Positions 1,678-19,974 of a DNA stretch of 19,974 bases are shown piece after piece. Where the stretch lies: the IMG/VR virus record IMGVR_UViG_2778261458_000009, positions 1 to 19,974 of that record, one strand, 5' to 3'. Within the stretch, counting starts at the first letter, position 1, and every line of letters begins with the position of its first letter. The position numbers and the translations under genes were made by a program. The notes under the pieces were generated by a model. It had not been told where the DNA came from. It saw nothing but the letters and a program-made list of their open reading frames with translations, and made no database searches. This DNA comes from a virus. Lineage: Duplodnaviria; Heunggongvirae; Uroviricota; Caudoviricetes.

Positions 1678-1702
1678 ATAAAAAAGCCCCGCATCGCGAG
1701 GC
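1678..1702 (-). terminator. Rho-independent terminator downstream of Rz/Rz1
   Basis: On the minus-strand RNA: stem GCCUCGC, loop GAU, stem GCGGGGC (7 bp, one G-U pair), followed by UUUUUU. Lies 33 nt after the Rz stop. Confidence 0.55.
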
Positions 1703-1734
1703 TCATTAAATTGACTTTGTAATTTGCAAAAAAA

Positions 1735-2172
1735 TTATTTCAGGCATTGCGTCCTGATGTACTCCTGCAGGTAGTTAACCTGCGCGGTTATCCTGTCGAT
1801 TCCACTTCTGAGACGGTAATAATTGAGTTCAGCATCTGCTGTAAGTCTTGGGCTTTCTCCATCGCCCATGCTGCTGGCTCCGGTCGTTGACTTTGCACAG
1901 GTGGCGGAGACTTGCAGGCGCTTACGACCAGCAGAAACATCAGCACGGAGACTTTCGATAGTCGCGTTAGCATCAGCAAGCTCCTTTGTGTATCTGGCGT
2001 CGAGTTCTGCTACATCACGTTGACGCTTCTGCATGTCAGCGATGATGTACGTGGCTTTATCGCGCTGTTCTTTATAGGTAATGGCGTTACCACGGTAATG
2101 ATTAACAGCCCATGACAGACAGACGATGATGCAGATAACCAGAGCGGAGATAATCGCGGTGACTCTGCTCAT
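1735..2172 (-). CDS. Rz: Rz i-spanin (145 aa)
   Basis: N-terminus [27 protein letters not shown] matches lambda Rz as recalled. ATGA overlap with the endolysin stop. Rz1 embedded in the +1 frame. Confidence 0.9.
1788..1979 (-). CDS. Rz1: Rz1 o-spanin lipoprotein, embedded within Rz (63 aa; true start may be a downstream Met)
   Basis: Entirely embedded in Rz in another frame. Lipobox-like LLVVSAC followed by a proline-rich stretch [11 protein letters not shown], as in lambda Rz1. Confidence 0.75.
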
Positions 2173-2645
2173 ACCTCAATCTCTCTGACCGTTCCGCCTG
2201 CTTCTTTGAATTTTGCAATCAGGCTGTCAGCCTTATGCTCGAACTGGCCATAACCAGCACCCGGCAGTGAAGCCCAGATATTGCTGCAACGGTCGATAGC
2301 CTGACGAATATCGCCGCGGTCAATCATCGGCAAAGCGCCACGCTCTTTAATCTGCTGCAATGCCACAGCGTCCTGACTTTTGGGAGAGAAGTCTTTCAGG
2401 CCAAGCTGCTTACGGTAAGCATCCCACCAACGGGAAAGAAGCTGGTAACGTCCGGCTGCTGTTGATTTGAGTTTGGGGTTTAGCGTGACAAGTTTGCGAG
2501 GGTGATCGGAGTAATCAGTGAACAGTTCGCCACCAACAATAACGTCATAACCGTGGTTACGTGTCGGTTGTCGCCCGTTATCCGTTCCTTCTGACCATGC
2601 CACCATATCAAGGAAAGCTTTACGCTGGGAATTTAGAGCCTGCAT
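2169..2645 (-). CDS. R: Endolysin, lambda R-type lytic transglycosylase (158 aa)
   Basis: Near-identical over its length to lambda R as recalled (…[47 protein letters not shown]…). Position between holin and Rz. Confidence 0.95.
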
Positions 2646-2648
2646 AAA

Positions 2649-2984
2649 TTACTCCTTCGAGCTACCAAATTTATTACCGATTACTCGCATTGCAGCCCCA
2701 CGAATAGCATCGACACCGATCAGCCCAACGCCACCACCAATGGCAACAGAAAGCGATTTAGGCCATCCGACATACTCAAGCGCGGATGCAAAAGTCAGCG
2801 TCAGAGCACCACAGAGCAAAATCTCGAGCGTTTTTCGCTTCCAGCCACCACCACCACCAAAATAAGCAATACGCAAACCAGCCATAACGATCGACATAAT
2901 CACTGCGCCAAGAGGCGTATCTCCACGCCACCAGCTCTGGAAAATCTCCAGCCAATCCGGCCATGTGTTTGGATTATGGGGCAT
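2649..2984 (-). CDS. Holin (111 aa, multi-TMD, not lambda S-like)
   Basis: Immediately upstream of the endolysin. Several hydrophobic segments and a charged C-terminus. Position-based call. Confidence 0.7.
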   Translation of the reverse strand: MPHNPNTWPDWLEIFQSWWRGDTPLGAVIMSIVMAGLRIAYFGGGGGWKRKTLEILLCGALTLTFASALEYVGWPKSLSVAIGGGVGLIGVDAIRGAAMRVIGNKFGSSKE

Positions 2985-3064
2985 GAATATCGTCTCTCAC
3001 CTCGTAAGTTATGCAGGCGACATATAAAAAGTTAAATAAAATAGTTGAATCAGATTGAGACATG

Positions 3065-3095
3065 GAAAAGGCTCGCCTGTGCGAGCCTTTTATTT
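3065..3095. terminator. GC-rich hairpin terminator (stem GGCTCGC / GCGAGCC, loop CTGT) flanked by A-run and T-run
   Basis: Perfect 7-bp stem at 3070-3087, TTTTATTT on the plus side and AAAAG on the other. About 70-100 nt downstream of the 429-aa cargo gene stop. Confidence 0.45.
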
Positions 3096-3128
3096 AGGTA
3101 GAGTGTTATAATAAAATCAAATTTACAT

Positions 3129-3153
3129 TATCTTCTTCCAAAAAGAAGATAAT
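3129..3153 (-). terminator. AT-rich hairpin (10-bp stem TTATCTTCTT / AAGAAGATAA, loop CCAAA) directly after the cargo operon stop
   Basis: Perfect inverted repeat read directly. On the minus-strand RNA it is followed by U-rich sequence. Confidence 0.3.
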
Positions 3154-3164
3154 CATCATATCCT

Positions 3165-4454
3165 TCAGAGCTCCTGATAAGCAGGTTGCAATTTTTCACA
3201 CCACTGCCTTAAAGTAGAAGCCCTTCTCTTTATTGTTTTGGAGCTGAGAGATATACATCTATCTTGCAAAAATCGTTCAGCTGTAAGTGGATCGAGCTCA
3301 GAAAGATTTTTAGCTTGACTCCAGGTAATCCACGCCCACCCGCAATGACTTGTTTCAAAACCGCGTGCAGCGATTCTTAGTCTCTTATCATAGTCAGATT
3401 CAACCAATTGCTGACCAAGAGCTGAAACAGAACCATTACTATTTAGTAACCCAAGTATTTTGGCCGCATGAATATAATACAATATATGTCGATTATCCAG
3501 ACCAGTACTAATCAGGTTCAGATGCTTCTCTTGCCATTTTAATTCAACTATCTTAAACACTTGTTCAATTAGGTTAGCCTGCGGTACCTGATAACTACTA
3601 ACAACTTGAGTAGCCATTTTAATCAATGTGCCAGAATAGAACTCAGCATCAGTTTTTCTGACTCTAAGAATAATATCATCAGTCACATTACTTTTTAGTT
3701 CAAAACATGAACTTGTCTCTATCACACTTTCAAATAAAGCAGATAACATCTGAGCATCGATATTATTCTGCTTAACAAAACCAATAATATCTTTTCTTGA
3801 TAGAATCAGATCATTTAGTTTTTTCAGCAATGGTTCAATTTGCTGCATTTTATCTGCCTTGAATGAAAGAACAAATGAACCAGGACGTCCAGATACTGGA
3901 CTCATTACATCTTTTTCATCAAATGCAGCTAATATTGATGAATAGAAATCATTAAAACACTCAAAAAGCTTCGAGACGCCTTTTAAAACCAAGGGTTCCA
4001 CAGAAGTTGCTGTTTTCTCCACATGAATCTCATGCGTAGAGAATTCTACCTCCTTTCCAATTTTACCATTAGGTAATACAGGAAGAACACTACTAATATA
4101 TAAGTTAGGTTCTGGAATTTTTATCTTCTCATTTAACTCAGAAACATTTATTTTTATTTCATCAACATGATTATCTTCATAGTAAATATTAAACTGATAG
4201 CAAAGCTTTTGTTCTTGATAAACTAAAACACTTCTAATATCAATTCTTTTACGCTCGAAGTGCTCCAACCTATCTTTTGAAATCGGTATGATAATCCATT
4301 TATCATAATCTTCTTCGTCGCCAATCCAATAGACAACAAACATGCTATTTATTTCATTAGACACAGAGAAAAGTTTTGGCTCTTCGAAGAACTCATAAAT
4401 TTTTTGCATATATAATGTGCCGAACACACTATCTTCCAAAAAAATATTGCTCAT
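3165..4454 (-). CDS. Hypothetical protein, cargo gene B (429 aa), no recognised domain
   Basis: ATG at 4452-4454 preceded by AAGAGAGGTGG. ATGA overlap with the upstream gene stop. AT-rich (roughly 30-35% GC by eye). Confidence 0.8.
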   Translation of the reverse strand: MSNIFLEDSVFGTLYMQKIYEFFEEPKLFSVSNEINSMFVVYWIGDEEDYDKWIIIPISKDRLEHFERKRIDIRSVLVYQEQKLCYQFNIYYEDNHVDEIKINVSELNEKIKIPEPNLYISSVLPVLPNGKIGKEVEFSTHEIHVEKTATSVEPLVLKGVSKLFECFNDFYSSILAAFDEKDVMSPVSGRPGSFVLSFKADKMQQIEPLLKKLNDLILSRKDIIGFVKQNNIDAQMLSALFESVIETSSCFELKSNVTDDIILRVRKTDAEFYSGTLIKMATQVVSSYQVPQANLIEQVFKIVELKWQEKHLNLISTGLDNRHILYYIHAAKILGLLNSNGSVSALGQQLVESDYDKRLRIAARGFETSHCGWAWITWSQAKNLSELDPLTAERFLQDRCISLSSKTIKRRASTLRQWCEKLQPAYQEL

Positions 4455-4891
4455 CTAACCACCTCTCTTATACAGGTGAATTTTTCATGAACTCGAGCAT
4501 CTTTACAAAGCCAAATGGTAAAATGAGTCGAATCAGGAGCTCCTGTTTTTAGCATTCTTCCATCCTGTGGATTCAACTCGCCTTTAGCAATAAACCTTTC
4601 ACCTATTCCTTCAGGAAATTTATTAAATACATTTACCAGTGATGTTTCGTCCATGAACATAGAAACACCATAGCAGCATTTCAATTGTAACCCTTGGAAC
4701 TTTTTCATTCTTTTTGGGTTTTCTTCTTTCATGTTTAAAAAACAAGCTTTCCCAGGTGGATTATTTCTGGCTAAGCGATAAAAAACCCCTTCAGCATCCA
4801 AGGACTCTTTTGGAGGAACATCTGCAGGAAAATAATCGGGAAAAATCTGTTGGGCAGAGTCTTCAAGAACCTGCTGTGCATTTTTAGTCAT
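4451..4891 (-). CDS. Hypothetical protein, cargo gene A (146 aa from the ATG at 4889-4891; the ORF track extends to a TTG at 4918)
   Basis: Translationally coupled to gene B (ATGA overlap). AT-rich. Start codon uncertain because no strong RBS precedes either candidate. Confidence 0.65.
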   Translation of the reverse strand: MTKNAQQVLEDSAQQIFPDYFPADVPPKESLDAEGVFYRLARNNPPGKACFLNMKEENPKRMKKFQGLQLKCCYGVSMFMDETSLVNVFNKFPEGIGERFIAKGELNPQDGRMLKTGAPDSTHFTIWLCKDARVHEKFTCIREVVR

Positions 4892-4918
4892 ACAATACGC
4901 TACCCAAGTAATTAACAA

Positions 4919-5486
4919 AAATCTGCCAATTTATTGGATATACACGTCCCAAATCCCTTGGCATCGTATTGAATATAACAACAAGCACATTAATCACATA
5001 TGCAATAAAGGCATAAAAAACACAACATATATAGCAAAAAGAAATCAAAAACAATATACGGGATGATGCGGATTTTTTTTATCTATATATAGTGGCTGGG
5101 CATAAGAATTGTTATAAAGTTGGCGTCCCTTGCTCCCATGTAATCATATGAAACACAGGATATAATTCCTGAAGGTAATCACATACTTCCCTAGATACAT
5201 AGATGAGAGACTAAAATAAAACCTACCGCCAAGAACTATGCCTTTTTCAACCAATCGTACTCTCTGCCCTGTCTAAAAGGCGGCCATTCAAAGCAAGTAC
5301 TTTTTTATGTTTATCAAGAAGCTACTAAGACTATTCAGAACTGATATTTGGATAACAAAATACCAACTTGATGGCGGGTTCTTGAAGATTCTCAACGGCA
5401 GACATACAAAGCCCATCGTTGAGAAAATCTTATCCATATTTTTTGAAAAATGCAAGCTTCATGTCGCTATCTTCGGCGAAAATCAC
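4919..5486 (-). promoter_or_regulatory. AT-rich intergenic region; expected location of the Q-dependent late promoter/qut site and of a promoter for the cargo operon
   Basis: 568 bp with no convincing ORF between the Q stop (5487) and the cargo gene start. Promoter elements not confidently placed. Confidence 0.3.
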
Positions 5487-6239
5487 TTATCTCGTCACCT
5501 TTCTCAATTGTGTTTCAGCATATGCTTCTTCCTGCCAGCACTTTGTTACTAGTTTATCAATTACGTCTGCATATCCTTTGTACCACTGATAATCAGTCAG
5601 GTCTGGAACCAGCTTCTGGACATGACGTCGTGCCAGTGTAGTCGGTAAACGGCTAAACCGGTTTCCATTGCAACGCCCACAAGTCTTATAAACAGGCGTG
5701 CCATGAAGCCGGGTTCTTTTTTCATCCAGGACAATACCTTTCCCCTTACACCCTCTGCACGCCGTGCTGACTTCTCCCTTGCCATGACAATGCTGACACA
5801 GTTCCTTCACCCACTCTTCTTTGATAACGGATTCCCCGCTTCTGGAATATTTCACCACTTCGCGCAATACATTATGAAATCCAGTACCAGCACAATGCTC
5901 ACAGCGAGCCTTACTTGCCGCAGACCTGGAATAATCAGCAAAGGCAAAATTCACAAGGTAAGGGATGATCTGTAACCGGGTTTCTTCACTCAATTTGTTC
6001 AATGTCTGGTTATCCAGTGCCATCGCGTAATTGAGCAGGCCTTCAATCGCAAACTGAGGATCCTGAACTCCAACTTTTGCCAGGAATAAGGCAAACCCAA
6101 GCGGTGCTTTCGACTGCACCATCCCCTGCGCAGCCATTACATCCGTAATTGTTAAACCACCCGAGCCTGTCGCCGGTGCGTCATCGCTCAATTTTGGAGA
6201 TTTTGGGGAGTAATATTTCGGTAAGGCTTCAAGGTTCAT
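5487..6239 (-). CDS. Late-gene antitermination protein Q-like (250 aa) with four CxxCxGxG zinc-finger repeats
   Basis: Position immediately upstream of the lysis module. Repeats CEHCAGTG, CQHCHGKG, CRGCKGKG, CGRCNGNR. Size and architecture recalled as similar to Qin-prophage Q homologs. RBS GGAG 8 nt upstream. Confidence 0.6.
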   Translation of the reverse strand: MNLEALPKYYSPKSPKLSDDAPATGSGGLTITDVMAAQGMVQSKAPLGFALFLAKVGVQDPQFAIEGLLNYAMALDNQTLNKLSEETRLQIIPYLVNFAFADYSRSAASKARCEHCAGTGFHNVLREVVKYSRSGESVIKEEWVKELCQHCHGKGEVSTACRGCKGKGIVLDEKRTRLHGTPVYKTCGRCNGNRFSRLPTTLARRHVQKLVPDLTDYQWYKGYADVIDKLVTKCWQEEAYAETQLRKVTR

Positions 6240-6252
6240 GCTCGTTCTCCAC

Positions 6253-6513
6253 TTACGCCAGTACGCCTATTGCCAGCGCACGATCGATAAAACGAAATAT
6301 CAGCTCCAGCTGGGAGCCATACTTCTCTTCAAATGCCACGGTATCCGCATGCAGCTCGTCGTGATGCTTTCTGCACAAAGGCAACACAAAGAGATCATGC
6401 GCTTTTGTCCCCATTCCACCCTGACCATGGCCTATCAGGTGGTGGGGATCATCAGCAGGCTTTCCACAACATGCACACGGCTGTGTCTTAACCCAGCGCG
6501 TGGTACTTTTCAT
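6253..6513 (-). CDS. Cys/His-rich zinc-binding protein (86 aa), probably the C-terminal part of a split DUF968-like prophage gene
   Basis: CACCGK…HH…PLCRKHHDELH motif. Overlaps the upstream ORF by 26 nt in another frame. Weak RBS. Confidence 0.55.
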   Translation of the reverse strand: MKSTTRWVKTQPCACCGKPADDPHHLIGHGQGGMGTKAHDLFVLPLCRKHHDELHADTVAFEEKYGSQLELIFRFIDRALAIGVLA

Positions 6514-7249
6514 TAACCCAGCGGCGACGTTTTGGGCGTAACATAAAAGACTCCGGCGACTCCGGCTCCACTTTCAGCGCCAGCACCTTTTTCGCCTTAT
6601 CCTGGATGATGCTGGTGGCAGGAACCGAAGGCACAAGGTCACTTTCCCGGGTGACAGACGGCACAACAGGCTTCGGTAATCTCAGTGCCTTACGGGCTGC
6701 ACTTTCCGGTAAGGCATCCGCCAGATCATTACGAATCAGCCACCAGCACAGTTCCGGCATTGTCACAACGTGACTGTCATCAAAACCGAGATCCCGACGC
6801 ACGACAGATAACACCCACCGGGCACAGTTATCCGTTGCCATTGATTCCAGCCGTTCCGTGAACTGATCGCGCAGCTGGTTATCGCAGTGCCAGCACAGAC
6901 GGATTGCGCCCGGCGCGTGTCGCATTGTGGTCATGTTCTCGCTGTGCCAGTCGGAATGAGGCCACTGGCAGCCTTTTTCACGAAGTAACCAGCTTTCAAG
7001 ACATTCCACCCCACCAGCACGACGGATCACTGTCTCATTGCGGAACACGGCCCGAACGGCAGGATCATCCGCCAGCGGTTGTGATGCCGCCGGAACGGCA
7101 CCACTGGCAAAAGATGAATAACGTTCCGGCTCAGGCTCCAGCAGGACACGCCCCTGCATAAACAGGGGCATCAGCTCTGAACCTGGTCTGAACAATACGA
7201 TCCCCATACGTGGGGCAATTTCAGGGGTCAGTAGTGCTCTCACGGTCAC
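6488..7249 (-). CDS. Hypothetical protein (253 aa), probably the N-terminal part of the split DUF968-like gene
   Basis: Long ORF tightly following the KilA-N gene (1-nt gap). Ends within an 11-bp direct repeat. Confidence 0.55.
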   Translation of the reverse strand: MTVRALLTPEIAPRMGIVLFRPGSELMPLFMQGRVLLEPEPERYSSFASGAVPAASQPLADDPAVRAVFRNETVIRRAGGVECLESWLLREKGCQWPHSDWHSENMTTMRHAPGAIRLCWHCDNQLRDQFTERLESMATDNCARWVLSVVRRDLGFDDSHVVTMPELCWWLIRNDLADALPESAARKALRLPKPVVPSVTRESDLVPSVPATSIIQDKAKKVLALKVEPESPESFMLRPKRRRWVNEKYHALG

Positions 7250-7250
7250 C

Positions 7251-8060
7251 TCAATGAACGGTATCGAGCAGCTTTAACAGCTCAGGGAATCGGGATTCGA
7301 AGAAATGCGGCTGCGTCTCGCGCGGATTTGCGGGACTGGTGATGTTCTTGCCGAACATGCAGCCTTTCGCTGTCAGCGACCAGAATTTTTTGATGTTGTT
7401 AATCGCGGTACGGCTGTATCGTTCGCGCTGCTCGACGATCCCCAGCTTCACCATCTGGTGATATGCCTGATTAGCCGTCAGGCGGATACCATACTGTTTC
7501 AGCAGTGCACTCAGTGACAGTGTCGGGCGACTTGAGCCATCGTGTGCATCAGCAGGGGCATCAATGGCATAGCGCGGTGCCAGATTCGGTAAGCCAACAG
7601 CCTCCTGGAGTTTCTGACAGGCACCAAGCACTGAAGAGTTAGACAGGTTTAATTCCCGGCGCATAAAGTCCAGCAGAATCACGCCAGCCTGCATCTTGTC
7701 AGCAGCCTGCCCGGATAATTTTTCCAGTGCGCTGGTTACCATATCGAAAGTACGGATCACCTTTAGATGGAATGACGGGCTGATCCACATTGCATAGGCA
7801 TACACCAGTTCTTTGCAGACATACGTTCCCCGTTCATTTCCCCCATGAATCACACTCACCGGGTCAACACCCAAATTCTGGGTGTTGGTCAATTCATGAA
7901 CAAGCTCAACAGTTTGTTGGCTGGAAAGAAACTTTCCTGGCTCCTTGGTTCTGGCATTTGCACCAGATGCTACTGCTGCGCGATGCAGATCGTTCAGGCT
8001 GTAACGCCCATAAGCATCACGACGAACTTCAATACCATCAATGACCATCAGATTATTCAT
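7251..8060 (-). CDS. KilA-N domain protein / antirepressor-like (269 aa)
   Basis: N-terminal segment …GKFLSSQQTVELVHEL…YVCKELVYAYAMWISPSFHLKVIRTFD… resembles the KilA-N signature. RBS AGGAG upstream. Confidence 0.7.
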   Translation of the reverse strand: MNNLMVIDGIEVRRDAYGRYSLNDLHRAAVASGANARTKEPGKFLSSQQTVELVHELTNTQNLGVDPVSVIHGGNERGTYVCKELVYAYAMWISPSFHLKVIRTFDMVTSALEKLSGQAADKMQAGVILLDFMRRELNLSNSSVLGACQKLQEAVGLPNLAPRYAIDAPADAHDGSSRPTLSLSALLKQYGIRLTANQAYHQMVKLGIVEQRERYSRTAINNIKKFWSLTAKGCMFGKNITSPANPRETQPHFFESRFPELLKLLDTVH

Positions 8061-8079
8061 ACTTCGTTTCTCCTCTTAA

Positions 8080-8469
8080 TCAGGCGGCTGCACCCGCCGG
8101 TTTCTCATACTTACTGATAGTGATCTCGACCTTCCCTTCCGGGATAACCGGTCCCCACTCCACCAGCATTCTTTTCACCTGACTGTCGTCTTCCCACACA
8201 CCCGCGTGGGTCAGGGCGTCAAACAGTGCCTTGTTATAGTTGTCCAGATCGCGGATCCGGTTATCCGGAGGAAACAACACGATCTCCACTGAAGCAGGTG
8301 CCGACGTTGGTTTCGGCAGACGACGTAACTGCTCAACTATTGCTGCGCACGCCGCGCTCTGGAATTTGCGCCCCGCCGCGCTTATCAGGCTTTTACCAGC
8401 AAACGCCCCTTTGTTAGGGTGTCGCCAGTACGTATTCACGCTGGGCGGGAAAGGAAGGATCAACTTCAT
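8080..8469 (-). CDS. rusA: Holliday-junction resolvase RusA (129 aa)
   Basis: …LPFPPSVNTYWRH…RIRDLDNYNKALFDALTHAGVWEDDSQV… matches the RusA family pattern as recalled. Confidence 0.85.
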   Translation of the reverse strand: MKLILPFPPSVNTYWRHPNKGAFAGKSLISAAGRKFQSAACAAIVEQLRRLPKPTSAPASVEIVLFPPDNRIRDLDNYNKALFDALTHAGVWEDDSQVKRMLVEWGPVIPEGKVEITISKYEKPAGAAA

Positions 8470-8792
8470 ACTTTCAGGCCCCTCTCATGTAACCAGTAGG
8501 CTGCACGCAGCCTGGCGTTTTCCTCACCGGCAAGCAGTGAGCGGATAATCCCGACCGCCTCGCTGTCGTCGTCCTTCACCGCGGTATGAAGCGTTATCCC
8601 CCGGGCCACGCCACGCTTTATCGTGATGACGCCTTTTTTCTCCAGTGCGCGAAGATGCTCCACCGCTGCATTCACCGAACGGTATCCCAGCATGGTTGCC
8701 ACCTCCTGATTGGTTGGCGGAAAGCCACGCTCTTTCTGATAAGAAATCAGCATATCCAGCACCTGCTGCTGGCATTGAGTTAACGTCGTCAT
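8466..8792 (-). CDS. LexA N-terminal DNA-binding-domain protein (108 aa, no peptidase domain)
   Basis: …LTQCQQQVLDMLISYQKERGFPPTNQEVATMLGYRSVNAAVEHLRALEKKGVITIKRGVARGITL… parallels the LexA N-terminus as recalled. ATGA overlaps with the Dam and RusA genes. Confidence 0.8.
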   Translation of the reverse strand: MTTLTQCQQQVLDMLISYQKERGFPPTNQEVATMLGYRSVNAAVEHLRALEKKGVITIKRGVARGITLHTAVKDDDSEAVGIIRSLLAGEENARLRAAYWLHERGLKV

Positions 8793-9442
8793 GCCGCCAT
8801 CTCCCTGACCAGTTTTTCCGCCTGCTGGCGAACCTGCGCCAGAAAGGCCTCACCACATGCCTCAAGTTCATCGCGCCCGATGTAGCTGATTGCCGGTCCC
8901 TTCCAGGTCTTGTCGAAAACAGCAATAGCACCAGCGAAGAAAGCGCCTGTCGGCACCTGCTTCTCGTCCTTCGGGATAAACCAGGCAGGCAGTTCAAAAC
9001 CAATACGCCCGCGAATAAAAGCAATATGGTCCGCATCTTCCGGCCACCACACTTCGCTGGTGGCAGCTTTGATCAGGAAAACATAGCGCCCGCCCTTATC
9101 ACGCATGGCACTGGCATGTTTCATGATGTAACGCATGCCGGTGATGTATTGCCCCTCATGCTGACTGGCGCGGCTGTATGGGGGATTACCAAAGGCAGCA
9201 CCTTTAAGCTCCGCAAGACGTTCTGACCAGTCATGCGCCAGCGCGTTGTCTTCCGCCGTGTAATACGCGGCACATTTGGCGTTATCACCGTCAGTGAACA
9301 GATCCAGAACAAACGGACCAAACAAGGTGTTAATTCCCCAGAAAATGTTGTCCGGCGTGCGCCACTGATCGCCCACTTCCTTCAGTTCATGGGCTGGTTT
9401 GTTCCGCAGTTCTACCAGCGCCTGGCAATATTTATTACTCAT
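8789..9442 (-). CDS. Phage DNA N6-adenine methyltransferase (Dam family, 217 aa)
   Basis: NPPY motif (AFGNPPYS). Position within the early-right operon. Confidence 0.8.
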   Translation of the reverse strand: MSNKYCQALVELRNKPAHELKEVGDQWRTPDNIFWGINTLFGPFVLDLFTDGDNAKCAAYYTAEDNALAHDWSERLAELKGAAFGNPPYSRASQHEGQYITGMRYIMKHASAMRDKGGRYVFLIKAATSEVWWPEDADHIAFIRGRIGFELPAWFIPKDEKQVPTGAFFAGAIAVFDKTWKGPAISYIGRDELEACGEAFLAQVRQQAEKLVREMAA

Positions 9443-9534
9443 TAAGCCCCCACGTAAAAAGCATCCGCAATGTCTCCGGAAGTACAGCCCGGATGGGCTT
9501 CAATGAATTTCTGAACTTCATTCAAAAGACTCAT
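9442..9534 (-). CDS. Small ORF (30 aa: MSLLNEVQKFIEAHPGCTSGDIADAFYVGA) translationally coupled between the O-like and Dam genes
   Basis: ATG 2 nt after the O-like stop (TGATCATGA). Its TAA overlaps the Dam ATG (TAATG). Hand-translated; below the ORF-track cutoff. Confidence 0.35.
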   Translation of the reverse strand: MSLLNEVQKFIEAHPGCTSGDIADAFYVGA

Positions 9535-9536
9535 GA

Positions 9537-10355
9537 TCACCCCCTGAATCCTGCCGGGATCTGGCTGTAGTCCACGTTGTCGTAACTGGCTTTGAAGTAC
9601 GGGTCCTCGCGTCTGGCTGCAGATACCGCAGGAACTTCCCAGGATTCTTCGAAATGACGATCCGGACCAAAGAACGTGACAGCCTGTTTCACAAATTGTG
9701 TACCGCTATTGCCCATCGCAGATACCCAGCCCGCGTAGCGTTTCACACCTTCCAGCATGGTTTCGGGGTTTACCCCCTCGTTCAAACGGGCTTTCCAGGC
9801 TTTGAAGGCTGCTGATTTTGAATTGCCACCAGCACGTTTGGGATATGCCAGCCATGCCTGCTCAAACTCCGGAGAGTATTCCGGTCGGTTTGAACGAACT
9901 CGCACAGACTCATCAGCAGATGCACCAACAGCTATTGGTTCATTGACTGATTCTTTGACTGGTTCAAAAGAGTGACTGGTTCTGGGTGAATCTCCTGCAC
10001 TACCCCCTGGTGCAACTCCTGCACTACCTGGTGAATTTGCTGCACCAGATAGTGAATTATTTGCACTACCCCCTAGTGAATCTCCTGCACCATCCAGATG
10101 AAGGAGATAGATATTACTTGAGTTACCTTTTTCACCTTTCCGGGTGACTTTTTTTACCAGCCCGGACTCACAAAGGGCCGCAATATGATTCATCACAGAA
10201 CGTTTGCTAATCTCGCACTGGTCAGCAATATGCTGGTAGCTGGGCCAGCACTCACCCTGATCGCTGGCATTATCAGCCAGCTTGATCAGAACCAGTTTTC
10301 GCAATGGATTACCCACTCGAATTTTCATCGCTTTAACCATCAGCTCCATACTCAT
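9537..10355 (-). CDS. Replication initiator, O-like (272 aa): N-terminal wHTH, Gly/Ala/Ser linker, conserved phage C-terminal domain
   Basis: N-terminal HTH-like segment, low-complexity linker encoded by tandem DNA repeats, position after cII/Rha as in lambdoid replication modules. Confidence 0.7.
   Translation of the reverse strand: MSMELMVKAMKIRVGNPLRKLVLIKLADNASDQGECWPSYQHIADQCEISKRSVMNHIAALCESGLVKKVTRKGEKGNSSNIYLLHLDGAGDSLGGSANNSLSGAANSPGSAGVAPGGSAGDSPRTSHSFEPVKESVNEPIAVGASADESVRVRSNRPEYSPEFEQAWLAYPKRAGGNSKSAAFKAWKARLNEGVNPETMLEGVKRYAGWVSAMGNSGTQFVKQAVTFFGPDRHFEESWEVPAVSAARREDPYFKASYDNVDYSQIPAGFRG
9985..10095. repeat. Five tandem ~21-24 bp imperfect direct repeats (approx. GTGAATCTCCTGCACTACCCCCT) inside the O-like gene, followed by an AT-rich stretch; candidate origin iterons
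   Basis: Repeats read directly at 9985-10008, 10009-10029, 10030-10051, 10052-10074 and 10075-10095. Lambda ori iterons likewise lie within gene O. Confidence 0.5.
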
Positions 10356-10576
10356 GCTGCACCTCCGAGATGCTTCATGTTTTTTCCGGAGCGAAAGGCT
10401 ATAAGCGGCATACTGACGCGGTAATTACGGCCCAGCGGTTCACAAATCACCTTCTGACATTCACGGTCAACCAGGCTAACACGTAGAACATGCCCTGCAG
10501 GTGTGGTGTACCACTGACCCGGACGAGGACAACGGAAAGTCTGATTGGTAAACCGTTTGAAAATATTCCGGATCAT
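10352..10576 (-). CDS. Hypothetical protein (74 aa)
   Basis: ATGA overlaps on both sides (with the Rha-domain gene stop and the O-like gene start). Confidence 0.5.
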   Translation of the reverse strand: MIRNIFKRFTNQTFRCPRPGQWYTTPAGHVLRVSLVDRECQKVICEPLGRNYRVSMPLIAFRSGKNMKHLGGAA

Positions 10577-11721
10577 TTGCGCCCCCTTACCTCTGAAGGG
10601 TTCAGCGACAAATTTATGAGGCAGGCCAGCGCCGAAGCATCATTAATATAGTCATACAAGCTAACAGCCAGCGGAGATTCGTCTTTTGCCAACATAGGAT
10701 AAAGCTGCTGCAGCCAGACCTGATGAATTGATGAAATGTAGGAATAGAGAACGCTGGCGTTATGTGCAACGTCGCTCGGTACAGGGGGTTTTGAAAGCTG
10801 TTTCTCCATCTGGTTAAAGGCATTGATATATGCCTCTTTGAACTGGGCAGCACGTTTACCCGTGAAACCCATAGCAAGAAACGCAAAGCCGTCGCGGGTT
10901 ATTTGATAGCAAGGTAGTTTGCGGCCTGATGCGTCGATGTACTCACTGAGCTGAAAATTCAGCTCAGTAAATTCGGCAGAGCATTCAAGAGACGCAATTT
11001 TTTGAATGACATTTTTGTGTTGTTTGCCGAAATAACTAGCAACAGCCAGAGAAGAAGTAACAACTTTGTCTGCAATAATGCAAAGTTCAGGTTGTACTAA
11101 GGCAGGGATCGTAGCCATGATGGCAGCCTCCGTATGCAATGGATAACTTCCACCACCGGAAACGCCAATTTCGCTGGTGGTGAACTGAGCAGGGTTGGCG
11201 TAACCGGCGCATACGGAAACCGGCGCACCTTTCGGTGCCCCCACCCAGCCCACCATAATTTGGGTATAGCTGAGTTGTAGCAACAAAAAAGACGCTAACG
11301 CGCCAATTGTCGCCGTATGCAATTCCAGGACGCCAATCCCGGCACCCGCTTTATAAGGTGCCTGAACAGTGTAACGTCCCGGAATGGCAGAATCAATGTG
11401 CTGGTGGTCCTTCACACTCAACAAAATCACGCCTGAATTTCCACAAAGGACTAAAGCACTCATGCGGGTAGTCTTTGCGAAGATAGATAACGCGCTGTGT
11501 TTCTGGTTCCCAACGAATAACATGAACATAAAGCCCTCTTCCGTCACGAAACCAGCGGTTAAGTTCCTGCACAACTCGCCCCCCACAGTCAGGTAAAGTT
11601 CTCTGTGGTTACTTACAGCCAGGTGATTTGGTAATCTGCATTCATGCCGTAACAACAGGTGTTCAGAGACGCTGACCACCAGCTGTTGCGACAAACGGTT
11701 ATTTGCCGTTAAACTGTTCAT
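10573..11721 (-). CDS. Rha-domain protein: 382-aa ORF with the Rha domain in the C-terminal 182 aa; a strong internal start at 11116-11118 could give a 182-aa Rha protein
   Basis: …FGKQHKNVIQKI…YQITRDGFAFLAMGFTGKRAAQFKEAYINAFNQM… matches the Rha signature. The 5' ATG at 11719-11721 overlaps the cII-like stop (ATGA). The internal ATG is preceded by GGAGG. Confidence 0.65.
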   Translation of the reverse strand: MNSLTANNRLSQQLVVSVSEHLLLRHECRLPNHLAVSNHRELYLTVGGELCRNLTAGFVTEEGFMFMLFVGNQKHSALSIFAKTTRMSALVLCGNSGVILLSVKDHQHIDSAIPGRYTVQAPYKAGAGIGVLELHTATIGALASFLLLQLSYTQIMVGWVGAPKGAPVSVCAGYANPAQFTTSEIGVSGGGSYPLHTEAAIMATIPALVQPELCIIADKVVTSSLAVASYFGKQHKNVIQKIASLECSAEFTELNFQLSEYIDASGRKLPCYQITRDGFAFLAMGFTGKRAAQFKEAYINAFNQMEKQLSKPPVPSDVAHNASVLYSYISSIHQVWLQQLYPMLAKDESPLAVSLYDYINDASALACLINLSLNPSEVRGRK

Positions 11722-12326
11722 GCGTTAGTTTCTCCACAGACACAAAACGCCACGACGCCCGGAGCTGCACACTCGCGGGCGTCACTCTTTTCTGGAGCGC
11801 AAAAGATTTTGTAGACCAGTGCTGCATGCTCCTGGAGCTTCGAAATTGACAGATACAACTCATCATTAATTGCTGTCTGCTCGTGTGGTTCCACCACCCC
11901 GTCTTCAATTGCTGAACGAATCTGTTTTGAATAACTGCCGATCTGTTCAATGACCTCCAGCAGGCGTTGGTTTATATCGGCGTTCTCTACTTCCTCAATT
12001 TCAGGAAGCGATACAAACACCCCACCAGCAGACTGTGCGACTGCATCCGCAATGTGGTGAGTGCCAGCAGCACGCTGTAAAACCATTGCCCATCCCAGCG
12101 GGAAAATCTGATCGCCATCGGCACGAAGGCGGTTAAATAATGCGTTCTCTGTTACATCCAGCCAGTCAGCAGCTTCAGCGTAACCCCCCGGCAATGCCGC
12201 GATAGTTTTTCTGACAGCTTTCACGTACCACTCAGGCTGTTTTTCTACTTTCCAGTGATGCTTACCCACGGTTAGCCTCATCGTTCTGTGGTTTCTGTTA
12301 ATCGATTTATCCATTAGATTTTTCAT
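11718..12326 (-). CDS. cII-like phage regulatory protein (CP76-type; about 202 aa from Met20; start uncertain)
   Basis: Position directly after cro. Family assignment is from memory and tentative. The ORF-track start at 12383 would overlap cro by 77 nt, so a downstream Met (12326, 12314 or 12281) is more likely. Confidence 0.5.
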   Translation of the reverse strand: MKNLMDKSINRNHRTMRLTVGKHHWKVEKQPEWYVKAVRKTIAALPGGYAEAADWLDVTENALFNRLRADGDQIFPLGWAMVLQRAAGTHHIADAVAQSAGGVFVSLPEIEEVENADINQRLLEVIEQIGSYSKQIRSAIEDGVVEPHEQTAINDELYLSISKLQEHAALVYKIFCAPEKSDARECAAPGVVAFCVCGETNA

Positions 12327-12507
12327 AAAGCTCAGGTTTAAATGGCAACCGTCCGCAAGTTCTATATGCAGCTTCTGCTGCACGTCCTTTTGGAATTAAC
12401 TGGCCCGGACGGTTTCGCCACTGATAAACGGCTTCAGTTGTTATGCCGAAAAAAGCAGCAACTTTCTCAATACTGCCGAAGTAGCTTTCGATATCGTCAG
12501 TTGTCAT
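12307..12507 (-). CDS. Cro-like HTH regulator (66 aa)
   Basis: Divergent from cI. RBS GGAGGG 5-6 nt before the ATG. HTH-like …VAAFFGITTEAVYQWRNR…. Confidence 0.75.
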   Translation of the reverse strand: MTTDDIESYFGSIEKVAAFFGITTEAVYQWRNRPGQLIPKGRAAEAAYRTCGRLPFKPELYEKSNG

Positions 12508-12604
12508 ACGCCCTCCAAACTAAGTTTTATTAGATGCTAATTACAAATCTATCTTTGGTCAATAAAAACTAAGATTACTTAGCAATTCAAGAAATGGTGC
12601 TCCT
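12508..12604. promoter_or_regulatory. OR-like operator/promoter region between cro and cI
   Basis: Perfect 14-bp palindrome CTAAGATTACTTAG (12569-12582) and related CTAAGTTTTATTAG (12520-12533). Minus-strand -35 TTGACC (12557-12562) and -10 TAGCAT (12534-12539), spacer 17, with the second operator over the -10/start. Confidence 0.6.
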
Positions 12605-13231
12605 ATGGAAACGGTTGGTCAGCGTATAAAAGCTCTGAGAAGAGTTACCAGAACGTCCCAGAAAGAATTGGGTAAATTTTGTGGAGTAAGCGACGTTGCT
12701 GTGGGGTACTGGGAGAAAGACATCAATACCCCTGGTGGGGAGGCACTTTCGAAATTAGCGAAGTTCTTCAATACGTCAATAGATTACATTCTTTATGGTG
12801 CTGAGTTTGAAGGCAAACTCGTCACAAACATGCGCAGAGTTCCTGTAATATCGTGGGTTCAGGCTGGGCAGTTTACTGAGTGCAGGGCAGCAGAAGTGTT
12901 TAGTGAAGTGGACAAGTGGGTAGATACATCATTAAAGATTGGTGATAACTCATTTGCATTAGAGGTTAAAGGTGACTCCATGACTAACCCTAATGGCCTC
13001 CCAACAATACCAGAAGGCGCAACAGTGATTGTAGATCCAGATGCAGAACCTCGTCATGGAAAAATAGTCATCGCTCGACTTGATGGAACAAACGAAGCTA
13101 CAGTAAAAAAATTAGTCATCGATGGCCCTCAAAAGTTTTTAGTGCCATTAAATCCTCGGTATCCCAACATCCCTATCAATGGTAATTGCCTTATCATTGG
13201 TGTAGTCAAAGGAGTTCAATACGAACTCTAA
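12605..13231 (+). CDS. CI-like repressor, HTH plus S24 LexA-like peptidase domain (208 aa)
   Basis: N-terminal HTH (…QKELGKFCGVSDVAVGYWEKD…), Ala-Gly cleavage-type site (VQAGQF), catalytic Ser in GDSM and Lys in KKLV. Confidence 0.9.
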   Translation: METVGQRIKALRRVTRTSQKELGKFCGVSDVAVGYWEKDINTPGGEALSKLAKFFNTSIDYILYGAEFEGKLVTNMRRVPVISWVQAGQFTECRAAEVFSEVDKWVDTSLKIGDNSFALEVKGDSMTNPNGLPTIPEGATVIVDPDAEPRHGKIVIARLDGTNEATVKKLVIDGPQKFLVPLNPRYPNIPINGNCLIIGVVKGVQYEL

Positions 13232-13284
13232 GACCTCTCTTCTCTAACTAAGGCACCGAACTAAGAAAAGTTTGGTGTTTTCTC

Positions 13285-13313
13285 TTGCCATAATAACTAA
13301 GTTAAGTTAGATT
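13285..13313 (+). promoter_or_regulatory. Putative pL-like promoter with OL-type operator
   Basis: -35 TTGCCA (13285-13290), 17-nt spacer, -10 TAGATT (13308-13313). Operator-like CTAAGTTAAGTTAG (13297-13310) lies in the spacer; further CTAAG copies at 13248-13252 and 13261-13265. Confidence 0.4.
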
Positions 13314-13421
13314 TTATATCAAAGATAACGAACAGGCAGGACGCCCACGAAGTAGCCGCCGGTGGCGTATGAATGACCGGATGATTCGTTAGCAACAAAA
13401 AAAGCGCCCTATAGGACGCTT

Positions 13422-13434
13422 CGCTCTTTAACAA
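13422..13434 (+). promoter_or_regulatory. boxA-like element CGCTCTTTAACAA (candidate nut-site boxA)
   Basis: GCTCTTTAACAA matches the rrn/nut boxA core as I recall it, about 100 nt downstream of the putative pL. No convincing boxB hairpin or N-like protein found. Confidence 0.4.
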
Positions 13435-13465
13435 TCCTGGTATCCCCGTAACAAAAGAGGGTTCT

Positions 13466-13759
13466 ATGGTCATATTCTGTGCTTACGTTCATCCTAATGG
13501 ATTTTTTATCAGCACCAACCAACAAGACGAATTCTGGATTCTACTTAGTAAGCAGGTCGGATGGGGACGATTCTGTCTAATCCGACCAGAATCAGAATTT
13601 ACAGAGAATGGAGGGCTTTTTGAATTACGTGAAATACGTCCGGCAGATGGTCAAGCCCCTGACCAAGTAATCGAATCGTCAGCTGTTTTATGGCGTCGGC
13701 AGGAAGCGTTCGAAGCTGAGAGAGTAATTTCTTCTTATCTTCAGTCGTGGCAGAAGTAG
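13466..13759 (+). CDS. Hypothetical protein (97 aa)
   Basis: RBS AGAGGG 5 nt before the ATG. Its 3' 161 nt overlap the convergent 167-aa ORF, so one of the two may be spurious. Confidence 0.4.
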   Translation: MVIFCAYVHPNGFFISTNQQDEFWILLSKQVGWGRFCLIRPESEFTENGGLFELREIRPADGQAPDQVIESSAVLWRRQEAFEAERVISSYLQSWQK

Positions 13760-14102
13760 AACTATTGATGATACGTTCAAGTTCACAGAGAGTCTCATCA
13801 TGCAATCTTATTGTCATAATCCCAAGAATAGCTTTAAGACCTCCATCATCACGAATGAAATCAATTCCATCTTTAGTAATTCTTAATTCAGGAATATTTA
13901 TATTTATGCCATCCAAGTAATAATCAAGAGCATTCTTAATCAAGCCATGTTCTTCGAGATAAATTAAGTTCGAAATTAGGACATTATCATCTCCAAATGC
14001 GTCACGAACAGACTGCAACGCATCATCAGAAATTTCATAAGGATGAGCATCATACAGTATTTGTAACAACTGCCTTTGTGCACTTCTATCAAATTTGTCC
14101 AT
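13599..14102 (-). CDS. Hypothetical protein (167 aa), AT-rich accessory gene convergent with cI
   Basis: ATG at 14100-14102 with GGTGA about 9 nt upstream. 5' two-thirds markedly AT-rich by eye. No family recognised. Confidence 0.55.
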   Translation of the reverse strand: MDKFDRSAQRQLLQILYDAHPYEISDDALQSVRDAFGDDNVLISNLIYLEEHGLIKNALDYYLDGININIPELRITKDGIDFIRDDGGLKAILGIMTIRLHDETLCELERIINSSTSATTEDKKKLLSQLRTLPADAIKQLTIRLLGQGLDHLPDVFHVIQKALHSL

Positions 14103-14571
14103 CTTAAATAATCACCATGTTATTGGGGTTATCAAGATTAACCGAATCCTTGTTGTTGGGGAATAACCAGGTCCACCTCGCCTGATGTGGCTAAAAGCAG
14201 GCACATAACAGCTAAGTATTTTCAACCAGAGAGAATCCTTAGCGTTGTGGTGAATGCGGCTCAGCGCACGCGGGTTAAGGTTGAGGCTGACAGTCGACCT
14301 TCTGTGGATACCCACCCGTCTGGTGTGCAACCTTCGCCAGGCACCGGGAGGCACCCGGCACCACAACTTTATGCTGTGTGTAGTCCTGGCGGTACCAGTT
14401 TGTACCCTTGCTTCCGGCTGGTACCGTCCTTTTTACAAAACAGAGAAGAGCATCACCGGACGACGGGCTCATAACCCAATCCATCCTGGCGGCTGCCACC
14501 GCAGGTGTTCTTCTCTGTTTTGTGGAGAAACTAATCGGCCTTGCAGGGTCGATATGATGAGGAGCAGCAAA

Positions 14572-14934
14572 ATGGCTAGCGAACGCAGTACTGATGTGCA
14601 GGCATTTATCGGGGAGCTGGACGGCGGCGTATTTGAAACCAAAATCGGCGCAGTTCTCAGTGAAGTCGCTTCCGGTGTGATGAACACGAAAACCAAAGGT
14701 AAGGTCTCACTCAACCTGGAAATCGAACCATTTGATGAGAACCGTGTGAAAATCAAACACAAACTCTCATATGTTCGCCCGACTAACCGCGGGAAAATTT
14801 CCGAAGAAGACACCACCGAAACGCCGATGTATGTCAATCGCGGTGGTCGCCTGACTATTCTGCAGGAAGACCAGGGACAGTTACTGACTCTTGCCGGTGA
14901 ACCTGACGGAAAACTCCGCGCAGCAGGTCGTTAA
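14572..14934 (+). CDS. Hypothetical early-left protein (120 aa), YfdP-like by size and position
   Basis: Strong RBS GAGGAG 7 nt before the ATG at 14572. The ORF-track 226-aa version has an implausible Arg-rich N-terminal extension. Confidence 0.7.
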   Translation: MASERSTDVQAFIGELDGGVFETKIGAVLSEVASGVMNTKTKGKVSLNLEIEPFDENRVKIKHKLSYVRPTNRGKISEEDTTETPMYVNRGGRLTILQEDQGQLLTLAGEPDGKLRAAGR

Positions 14935-14999
14935 TATCGTTTTTAATTAACTGATTATTTATCTCATCACTGAATATCTTTATATAGTGAGGACTTATT

Positions 15000-15824
15000 A
15001 TGTCTCAGAACTTAGACGCAACCGCAATTAATCAAATCCATGCCCTTATTTCTGCTCAGGGTGTTAATGAAATTATCAGTAAGATTGGTGCCGATGCTGT
15101 GGCATTGCCTGAGAATTTCCGCATTCATGATCTGGAAAAATTTAATTTAAATCGCTTCCGTTTCCGTGGTGCGCTTTCCACTGCCAGCATCGATGACTTT
15201 ACCCGTTATTCTAAAGATCTTGCAGATGAAGGCACCCGCTGCTTTATCGATGCTGATAATATGCGTGCCGTCAGTGTGCTTAACCTGGGTACTATTGATG
15301 AACCAGGTCACGCAGATAACACCGCCACTCTCAAACTGAAAAAGACAGCACCGTTCTCTGCTCTGTTGTCTGTTAACGGCGAGCGTAACTCCCAGAAGTC
15401 ACTGGCAGAATGGATTGAAGACTGGGCCGACTACCTTGTGGGCTTTGATGCTAATGGTGACGCCATTCAGGCAACAAAAGCGGCTGCGGCAGTCCGTAAA
15501 ATCACAATTGAAGCGAACCAGACTGCTGATTTTGAAGACAATGACTTCAGCGGCAAACGCTCCCTGATGGAGTCTGTCGAAGCGAAGACCAAAGACATTA
15601 TGCCAGTGGCATTTGAATTTAAATGCGTTCCGTTTGAAGGCCTGAAAGAACGTCCATTTAAATTACGACTCAGCATTATCACTGGTGATCGCCCTGTACT
15701 GGTTCTGCGCATTATTCAGCTGGAAGCAGTGCAGGAAGAAATGGCTAACGAATTTCGTGATCTGCTTGTTGAGAAATTCAAAGACAGCAAAGTAGAAACC
15801 TTTATTGGTACTTTCACCGCCTGA
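15000..15824 (+). CDS. DUF2303-type prophage protein (274 aa), YfdQ-like
   Basis: Size and operon context match the CPS-53 yfdPQRST cluster as recalled. RBS GAGGA upstream. Confidence 0.7.
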
Positions 15825-18750: not shown

Positions 18751-19974
18751 TCAGTTGGGGTTTAAGCTAGCACAAGTAACGATCGATTCAACCCTATCCC
18801 ACCACGCCTGGTAGGCTTTACGCTGTTCTTCTAGATAATCGCTCTTGTCATAAACCTGCCAAACCCCTGGCAGTTTATGGCCGAGCATTATTTCTGCAAT
18901 ATGAGGAGCAGTAAGATCAGAAAAATTTGTTCGTGCTGTTCGCCTCAAATCATGAAGAGACCAATGAGGGAATTGATACCCCAAACGCCGCCATGCGTAC
19001 TGCATTAAATTGTAAGGCAGCGACTGCAATGATGTTCGACCAACGGGTTCCCTGCTTCCTTCCTTAGTAAAAAGCATATCGGAACCATTGTTCATAGAGA
19101 TAGCGTTCTTTATAAGCTCTTCCACCGGTTCAATAATGGGCCGCTTTAGCGGTTCGCCCGTTATCTCCCCAGTCTTATGTCGTTCAGGTGGTACAATCCA
19201 TACCTTATTAATGAAATCAAAATCGTCCACCCTAGCAGTAATTAGCTCTGAACTACGACAGCCAAAATGCAGCAATAGCTTAATGAAGGCCCGGTATTTA
19301 GGAACCATTCGAGAACCATCGATCGCAGCATAAAGGATTTTAATTTCATCATGTGTCAGAAACCGTTTCTTCTGACCTTTACGGATATCCATATCTTTAC
19401 CCGTGATATCCGACAGCGGGCGAGTTTCAATGAGCTTTCTCTTATACGCCCAGACATGGGCCTGCTTTGCGTTAATTAGCAATCGGTCTGCTATTGCTGG
19501 AGTCTTAGTGCTAAGAGGCTCCAGGACTTCTAACCAATCATGCAATGTAGCTGCATCGTGAGGGATATTCCCGATTTTAGAAAACAGGTGCAGCTCAAAC
19601 GAGCGGAGTATCTGTTCAGAACCTTTTTTATTTTTTACACAATATGCTTCATACCAGGCACGGATCACAGACTCTACCGTCATGGCCTCAGTAGCTTTTC
19701 GTTTTTCAGCTTGCTTGACCAATCGTGGATTACGGTTTGACTCAAGTTCACCACGGAGACGGATAACTTCTTCTCTGGCCTCTTTTAATCCAGTTGCCGG
19801 ATAAGTTCCGATATCAAGACGCTCACCTTTCCCTGCCCATTGATAACGATATTGGAACACTACGCGACCTTTCGGTGATACTCTGACAGACAGACCATCA
19901 CGATCGGATTTAACCAAAACCTTATCACGTTCCTTTCCAACGACTGAACGCAACCACGCATCAGACAGCGCCAT
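18751..19974 (-). CDS. Tyrosine-type site-specific integrase (407 aa)
   Basis: Start codon at the window edge (19972-19974). N-terminal arm-binding-like region and C-terminal catalytic pattern (…HDLRRTARTN…LGHK…Y…) typical of phage integrases. Confidence 0.9.
   Translation of the reverse strand: MALSDAWLRSVVGKERDKVLVKSDRDGLSVRVSPKGRVVFQYRYQWAGKGERLDIGTYPATGLKEAREEVIRLRGELESNRNPRLVKQAEKRKATEAMTVESVIRAWYEAYCVKNKKGSEQILRSFELHLFSKIGNIPHDAATLHDWLEVLEPLSTKTPAIADRLLINAKQAHVWAYKRKLIETRPLSDITGKDMDIRKGQKKRFLTHDEIKILYAAIDGSRMVPKYRAFIKLLLHFGCRSSELITARVDDFDFINKVWIVPPERHKTGEITGEPLKRPIIEPVEELIKNAISMNNGSDMLFTKEGSREPVGRTSLQSLPYNLMQYAWRRLGYQFPHWSLHDLRRTARTNFSDLTAPHIAEIMLGHKLPGVWQVYDKSDYLEEQRKAYQAWWDRVESIVTCASLNPN

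Follow-up and report, generated by a model that had tools for sequence, protein, structure and literature searches.

A LexA-type DNA-binding domain lacking the protease domain and carrying a conserved helical tail, encoded in the early operon of a lambdoid prophage

The LexA repressor of Escherichia coli contacts the bases of its operator through the residues Ser39, Asn41, Ala42, Glu44 and Glu45 (PMC3091678). A truncated homologue is known from the Bacillus thuringiensis tectivirus GIL01, the gp6 of which is 44% identical to the DNA-binding domain (DBD) of the host LexA, recognises a palindrome of its own, GaCACAn nTGTGaC, and activates the late promoter P3 (PMC6182141). The present study concerns a phage-encoded protein of related architecture, found in a stretch of 19,974 nucleotides (the whole of it called the window hereafter) that covers positions 1 to 19,974 of the IMG/VR record IMGVR_UViG_2778261458_000009 from a virus of the Caudoviricetes. 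The window represents the early region of a lambdoid prophage together with its lysis genes, the late structural genes lying outside. The gene of interest, at 8466..8792 on the minus strand, encodes a LexA-type DBD followed by a short helical tail instead of the S24 peptidase domain. Judged from its sequence, the protein is best regarded—with a confidence a little above even—as a RecA-insensitive, probably dimeric, delayed-early, LexA-derived DNA-binding regulator with a specificity of its own, which would be related but not identical to that for the SOS box. The features of the gene, in window coordinates, are as follows:

8466..8792, minus strand: gene of the LexA-DBD-only protein, 108 aa; ratio of nonsynonymous to synonymous polymorphism (pN/pS) 0.06 over 50 alleles
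8589..8792, minus strand: winged helix-turn-helix of the LexA type, codons 1-68 (Pfam PF01726, AlphaFold2 (AF2) model, Foldseek match to 3jso)
8634..8678, minus strand: recognition helix SVNAAVEHLRALEKK, codons 39-53 (codons read from the sequence)
8568..8588, minus strand: flexible acidic linker, codons 69-75 (predicted local distance difference test, pLDDT, <50 for residues 71-75)
8469..8567, minus strand: conserved two-helix hairpin, codons 76-108 (helices 76-87 and 93-103), replacing the S24 domain; pN/pS 0.17
8789..8792, minus strand: ATGA overlap of the Dam stop and the LexA-DBD start (seen in the sequence)
8466..8469, minus strand: ATGA overlap of the LexA-DBD stop and the RusA start (seen in the sequence), present in 80/80 IMG/VR loci and in the Cronobacter, Salmonella and Atlantibacter homologues

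The open reading frame (ORF) 8466..8792 on the minus strand holds 108 codons' worth of protein, its ATG being the longest possible start, and a GGAG is found approximately 9-12 nt 5' of that ATG. Concerning the domain, the Pfam profile PF01726 (LexA_DNA_bind) aligns over its entire length (1-65/65) with residues 1-65 at E=3e-19 and 69 bits, the cut-off being 23.7, which is a match far beyond chance. By BLASTP, residues 1-90 are 43% identical to residues 1-86 of E. coli LexA (E=8e-22), and the sequence matches of the protein in the PDB are LexA entries only. The AF2 model, prepared from a 24-sequence alignment (pLDDT 81.7), has the DBD helices at residues 6-22, 28-35 and 40-52 and the wing strands at 56-58 and 66-68; it is superposed by Foldseek on the LexA-DNA complex 3jso with a root-mean-square deviation of 1.1 Å over 68 residues, at 50% identity. 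The match to the whole profile and the LexA-like modelled fold bear out the LexA-type winged helix-turn-helix proposed in an initial annotation, which had been made from the sequence alone. Its second statement, the lack of the S24 autocleavage domain, holds equally well: no such domain is found in the protein by Pfam, and the NCBIfam lexA equivalog TIGR00498 is aligned only over its positions 1-91/203, at 70.8 bits and thus under the cut-off of 110.95. A degraded S24 domain located downstream or in another frame was considered as well and rejected, tblastn of the LexA C-terminal domain against the window giving no match. With such an architecture the 108-aa protein cannot be expected to cleave itself as LexA does, and because the S24 autocleavage domain is lacking, it should be insensitive to RecA.

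The recognition helix keeps four of the five LexA contacts, namely Ser39, Asn41, Ala42 and Glu45, and is LexA-like also at His46 and Lys53, the fifth contact, Glu44, being replaced by Val. This replacement extends to the entire family, Glu44 being present in 0/135 of its cluster representatives versus 13/22 LexA-length proteins obtained in the same search; the family has at this position mostly Val (48), then Phe (21), Asn (20), Ala (18), Thr (14) and Leu (11). The stretch 44-46 reads VEH in E. coli, AEH in Salmonella, TDM in Cronobacter, NDH in Atlantibacter, FEH in Kosakonia and LLH in Klebsiella, and the recognition helix occurs in 24 different strings, which group by genus. The hosts of all these subfamilies have one common SOS box. 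Between genera, identity amounts to 48-57% for the LexA-DBD protein, but to 69-93% for its neighbours RusA and Dam and for DUF968 in its C-terminal part; among E. coli sequences the LexA-DBD protein hardly varies. Such a divergence across genera would be the pattern typical of a DNA reader with a changing site, and, judged from the sequences, the ordinary SOS box is disfavoured as the target.

It is at this point that a different role has to be considered, in which the protein would act as an uncleavable surrogate of LexA on the canonical SOS boxes of the host and of other prophages or plasmids, restoring repression after activated RecA (RecA*) has destroyed LexA. This role appears unlikely, and equally so its extension, according to which the host SOS response as well as the LexA-controlled antirepressors, colicins and defence genes of rivals would be shut down during the lytic cycle. 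The identity of 43-51% to the DBD of E. coli LexA, with Ser39, Asn41, Ala42, Glu45, His46 and Lys53 retained, is in its favour, as is the reported behaviour of the isolated N-terminal fragment of LexA, which, in the work of Kim and Little from 1992, is said to keep weak operator binding. Expression from an induced early operon would, moreover, coincide with the depletion of LexA, and a constant target in the host would fit the movement of the gene among different immunity, replication and Q modules. However, the contact made by Glu44 (PMC3091678) is lost, with Val in the 108-aa protein and Glu in none of the 135 representatives, and the residues 44-46 vary among genera; the spacing of the LexA half-sites may fail with a different dimerisation element; and the LexA box is not the site of GIL01 gp6, the identity of which to its host LexA is similar (PMC6182141).

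The binding sites themselves were searched for with a position-specific scoring matrix (PSSM) for 20-mers, trained on a set of 20 SOS boxes of E. coli, its thresholds being approximate. No SOS box was found with it in the 20-kb window—a further point against the surrogate role—the best score being 9.9, whereas the training boxes score 12.6-25.5; shuffled sequences do as well as the window, with a mean maximum of 9.7. The simpler pattern CTGT-N8-ACAG, a search for which had been proposed in the initial annotation, occurs with at most one mismatch 13 times in the window versus 6.7±2.6 expected, and the conclusion from both searches is that the window has no SOS box. The sole perfect match, CTGTGGTTACTTACAG (11603-11618; ~0.3 expected), is located in the 5' part of a 382-aa Ash/Rha fusion gene; since its centre is GC-rich, with no AT-rich core, and its PSSM score is <8, it is probably a chance match. 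Among perfect arms of 5-7 nt with spacers of 0-14 nt in the 12 intergenic regions, none was convincing and none was TGT-centred at a promoter, and the region 3' of Q has yielded no candidate palindrome. A regulatory site within the gene's own block has been rejected, as the genes there overlap or are separated by gaps of ≤~19 nt (84 nt once, in Atlantibacter), which leaves no room for it.

Near-consensus SOS boxes do occur in relatives of the phage, so that the phage group seems to be wired to LexA, in line with the surrogate role; they belong, however, to mosaic modules unlinked to the LexA-DBD gene (27/80 loci with the box in cI and 19 loci with that at a methyltransferase gene). A dinI homologue preceded by an SOS box, two genes 5' of the Klebsiella homologue, points in the same direction as the relatives' boxes. 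The initial annotation had suggested that the protein could occupy SOS boxes or phage operators in an uncleavable manner. The uncleavable, RecA-insensitive part of this suggestion stands by virtue of the architecture, whereas SOS boxes or phage operators as the targets are disfavoured by the loss of Glu44, the variation of residues 44-46 by genus, the window without an SOS box and the precedent of gp6.

As to the boxes as such, the first of them, TACTGTTTTTACATACAGTA (PSSM 25.6), lies at 5546-5565 of the locus L040 inside a 230-aa alternative cI gene (5082..5774), where it falls in the linker between the helix-turn-helix and S24 domains, this location being known from L040 only. The same box or its one-base variant is present in 27/80 IMG/VR loci and also at position 15945 of the locus L001, the immunity module being different from that of the window. 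The second, TACTGTAAAAATAAACAGTG (score 22.4; L008 10310-10329), with its variant AACTGGATATTTTTACAGTA (L001 8365-8384), was seen in 19 loci in total; both overlap the first codons of an N6_N4 DNA methyltransferase gene located 3' of Q in phages of E. coli and Salmonella, which in L001 is just 5' of the tRNA and stx genes. The third, the consensus box TACTGTTTATTTATACAGTA (score 27.0), is situated at 5385-5404 in the Klebsiella prophage remnants L002-L004, 20 nt 5' of the dinI homologue; with the LexA-DBD homologue two genes further on the same strand, that homologue may be SOS-induced there.

Beyond the wing, the AF2 model has an acidic, low-confidence linker (residues 69-75) and two helices, 76-87 and 93-103, predicted with a pLDDT of ~85. 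The tail is a property of a whole family of 105-133-aa proteins, down to ~40% identity, from Escherichia, Salmonella, Citrobacter, Cronobacter, Atlantibacter, Kosakonia, Klebsiella and Hafnia, the 135 cluster representatives covering the entire family profile, tail included. In the 24-sequence alignment no exchange is seen at Ala97 or Leu101, and the two tail helices bear a broad stripe of hydrophobic residues along their length. The hairpin 76-108 may therefore be a dimerisation element in place of the S24 domain. The alignment to LexA, by both HMMER and BLAST, reaches the region of the cleavage site ('GIIRSLLAGE' versus 'PLVGRVAAGE'), which suggests that the family descends from lexA by a truncation shortly after that region.

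In the same alignment Ala88-Gly89 of the tail corresponds to the LexA cleavage site Ala84-Gly85, and the alignment with TIGR00498 runs through position 91. Both facts could be taken to mean that the protein is a functionless, decaying remnant of a captured lexA, or that its tail serves as a pseudo-substrate or decoy for S24 proteases, but either is very improbable. Ala88 is found in 84/135 and Gly89 in 97/135 representatives, Citrobacter has Ala-Asn at the positions 88-89, and in the AF2 model the pair is placed at the end of a predicted helix, outside any cleavage loop; because of this lack of conservation and this position, Ala88-Gly89 is probably no cleavage site, and it was set aside both as a true site and as a decoy. 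The tail, moreover, is conserved over the 135 representatives, and the gene is under purifying selection, with pS 0.093, pN 0.0052 and pN/pS 0.06 for 50 distinct full-length alleles, all intact, from 81 loci (0.01 for codons 1-70 and 0.17 for codons 71-108), on the strength of which the pseudogene reading was rejected.

It should be pointed out that the gene is already known: it is real, well conserved and publicly annotated. Its 1.7-kb locus is present in 2704/5426 complete E. coli genomes, the gene being named 'LexA family transcriptional regulator' or 'LexA family protein', and the window protein has a counterpart of 100% identity in the locus L001, the RefSeq entry WP_000210167.1 (likewise a 'LexA family transcriptional regulator'). 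PHROG 362 ('transcriptional repressor') is matched at E=1.2e-58, residues 1-108 aligning with positions 1-106/106 of the profile. Proteins identical at 94-99% are encoded by the phages SfV (orf42), SfII ('LexA DNA binding domain protein'), SfIV, mEp460 and cdtI and by Stx2a, Stx2c and Stx2k phages. What is new beyond the earlier annotation is the conserved two-helix tail family across Enterobacterales, the purifying selection and the presence of RusA 3' of the gene in 80/80 viral loci. A cluster look-up concerning the origin of the LexA-type domain returned no informative names. Tandem pairs of LexA_DNA_bind without S24 were observed in the metagenomic proteins P0130 (222 aa), P0148 (352 aa, from a Planctomycetaceae metagenome-assembled genome), P0151, P0152 and others, and represent a further architecture built on the LexA DBD.

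The surroundings of the gene consist of the following features:

8789..9442, minus strand: Dam, phage N6-adenine methyltransferase, the upstream and variable neighbour (PF05869, E=1e-45)
8080..8469, minus strand: RusA Holliday-junction resolvase, the downstream and invariant neighbour (PF05866, E=6e-15)
7251-8060, minus strand: KilA-N protein, part of the co-inherited nin block (5487..8060)
6253-7249, minus strand: DUF968/HNH-like gene, frameshifted in the window, part of the co-inherited nin block
5487-6239, minus strand: Q antiterminator, part of the co-inherited nin block
12534..12562, minus strand: pR-like promoter TTGACC-17-TAGCAT, between the genes of the cI-type repressor and the cro-like protein
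12605..13231, plus strand: S24-type cI repressor
18751..19974: integrase

From the pR-like promoter, the order on the minus strand is cro-like, cII/CP76-like, Rha/Ash, replication initiator (HTH_36/DnaD_N), Dam and LexA-DBD, continuing with RusA, KilA-N, DUF968, Q, a two-gene cassette and the holin/Rz lysis genes. This agrees with the location in the early operon given in the initial annotation, the gene lying in the nin region of the rightward early operon, downstream of the cro-like gene and the pR-like promoter. The coupling to both Dam and RusA that it described can likewise be read directly: the plus strand has 'tcat' at 8789-8792 and at 8466-8469, so that ATGA stop/start overlaps are formed at both ends of the gene. 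In the part running from the replication gene to Q, adjacent genes share bases or leave gaps of ≤19 nt, except for one stretch of 94 nt with a 30-codon ORF. No promoter-like site was seen inside Dam, 5' of the LexA-DBD gene, so expression in the lysogen from an internal promoter has been rejected. Because of its position in a gapless operon and with no promoter-like site of its own, the LexA-DBD gene is presumed to be a delayed-early gene of the nin region, transcribed from pR.

The order of the neighbours is strictly kept on the 3' side and variable on the 5' side. RusA follows directly, with the ATGA overlap, in 80/80 IMG/VR loci, KilA-N and DUF968 coming next, and homologues of 47-57% identity from Cronobacter, Salmonella and Atlantibacter are arranged in the order methyltransferase, LexA-DBD, RusA, a KilA-N/ANT/Rha protein, DUF968 and Q. 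On the 5' side, the methyltransferase (L005-L011, ~2600-6004) comes from three unrelated families, i.e. Dam (PF05869), D12-class (PF02086) and C5 (PF00145); Dam itself is there in roughly 50/80 E. coli IMG/VR loci according to a hand tally, and in L012, the single Dam-less locus looked at, the gene 5' of LexA-DBD codes for 164 aa. This raises the alternative that the protein is an accessory DNA-binding partner of RusA, possibly also of the methyltransferase or the DUF968/HNH protein, concerned with DNA structure or targeting rather than with transcription. The invariant overlap with RusA in the viral loci and in three other genera would suit such a partner, as would the 5' neighbour that is nearly always a DNA methyltransferase, from whichever of the three families. 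The alternative is nevertheless rather doubtful: the Klebsiella homologues, arranged as dinI, a hypothetical gene, LexA-DBD, a small ORF and DUF968, have neither RusA nor a methyltransferase adjoining them; RusA genes without a LexA-DBD gene occur in other lambdoid phages; plain co-inheritance can explain the synteny in a gap-free polycistronic block; and the pattern of the recognition helix resembles that of a sequence-specific reader.

Some details of the neighbourhood deserve a separate mention. The DUF968/HNH-like gene is split into the overlapping ORFs 6488..7249 and 6253..6513 (minus strand) by an extra base near 6502, as seen from the comparison with the intact 329-aa gene of E. coli FWSEC0008 (L001 9355-10344), and is either a frameshifted pseudogene or the result of a sequencing error. 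The 94-nt stretch between the replication gene and Dam (9443-9536, minus strand) contains the 30-codon ORF MSLLNEVQKFIEAHPGCTSGDIADAFYVGA, which corresponds roughly to residues 1-26 plus the 4 C-terminal residues of the 164-aa protein encoded directly 5' of LexA-DBD in L012 (8081-8575) and looks like the scar of an in-frame deletion at a mosaic joint; by its position the 164-aa gene would correspond to the PerC-family gene of other genera. The cassette between Q and the holin gene (3165-4918, minus strand) is formed by a 155-aa and a 429-aa gene (DUF6575, DUF7226), has a weak similarity to the anti-phage proteins PD-T4-10 A and B (E=3e-10 and 2e-7) and occupies the moron position, which is the stx site in Shiga toxin (Stx) phages. 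Among the complete E. coli genomes of the collection, none matches over 63% of the window at a single location; the mosaic of modules seen in the window is absent from that collection, each module being common.

According to the favoured reading—that of a RecA-insensitive, LexA-derived regulator with its own specificity—a lexA gene would have been truncated just past the cleavage-site region and the remaining stub remodelled into the helical hairpin. The protein would be made only once the prophage repressor has been inactivated and pR is open, i.e. during lytic growth and after induction. The hairpin would serve as the dimerisation module replacing the S24 domain, so that the two heads could read an inverted repeat, with the invariant Ser39, Asn41 and Ala42 retaining part of the LexA read-out and the family-specific residues 44-46 (Val-Glu-His in the window) setting a specificity akin to, yet distinct from, that for CTGT-N8-ACAG. 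Since the protein would be uncleavable, its occupancy would be independent of RecA*, and it would regulate by repression as the default, or by activation as in the case of GIL01 gp6. The site more probably lies on the host chromosome, on another mobile element or within a coding region than in an adjoining phage operator, because the immunity, replication and Q modules that accompany the gene vary and no non-coding space is left between the genes of its block.

Several points weigh against this reading. The searches yielded no binding site, and no convincing inverted repeat was found in the whole window. Four of the five LexA contacts are kept in the E. coli subfamily, so that the specificity may overlap with that for SOS boxes. 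The dimerisation through the tail is deduced from the amphipathic helices and their conservation, the AF2 model being that of a monomer with a predicted template modelling score (pTM) of 0.57, and the invariant coupling to RusA could be compatible with a non-transcriptional role. In the literature, the SfI and SfII genome papers included, no experimental study of the protein was found.

The protein is of importance for its frequency, its gene being among the commonest uncharacterised DNA-binding genes of the lambdoid prophages of E. coli, Shigella and Salmonella, Stx2-converting ones included, as well as for being strongly constrained and derived from the master SOS repressor. If its operators were of the SOS type, it would represent a means by which the phage restrains the SOS response or its competitors among the prophages, with a bearing on the induction of Shiga-toxin phages and on the SOS response triggered by antibiotics. 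Should the specificity be a private one, which is what the sequence suggests, this would be the second independent case, after GIL01 gp6, of a LexA head used as a private regulator of a phage.

Concerning the known systems, the families recorded as PHROG 362 and in RefSeq contain the same protein as that of the window, the names 'repressor' and 'LexA repressor' in the records having been given by similarity only. E. coli LexA (PDB 1lea, 3jso) shares with it 50-51% identity over 67-69 superposed residues (~1.1 Å), and the homology is traceable up to the cleavage-site region. Unlike LexA, the protein has no S24 peptidase/dimerisation domain with Ser119 and Lys156, this being replaced by a 33-residue hairpin, and carries Val instead of Glu44; and while LexA is autoregulated through SOS boxes, the window protein is phage-encoded and belongs to an early lytic operon. 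The LexA(Ind-) mutants G85D and S119A and the LexA 1-84 fragment resemble it in that their DNA-binding activity is uncoupled from RecA*; they have, however, the wild-type recognition helix, whereas the phage protein has an altered one and its own conserved C-terminal module. The 1-84 fragment left by autocleavage binds weakly and is removed by ClpXP.

GIL01 gp6 is the sole experimentally studied protein of this kind found in the literature. It is likewise phage-encoded and early, consists of a LexA DBD without the protease domain and has a similar identity to the LexA of its host. The 61 matches obtained by tblastn in 50,697 phage records (E≤1e-5) bear enterobacterial names only, with no Bacillus phage among them, gp6 not having been aligned directly. 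Late transcription, which gp6 serves at P3, is handled in lambdoid phages by Q. The two proteins differ also in that gp6 ends essentially at the wing, with no helical-hairpin tail, and comes from a host phylum and a phage type different from those of the prophage described here.

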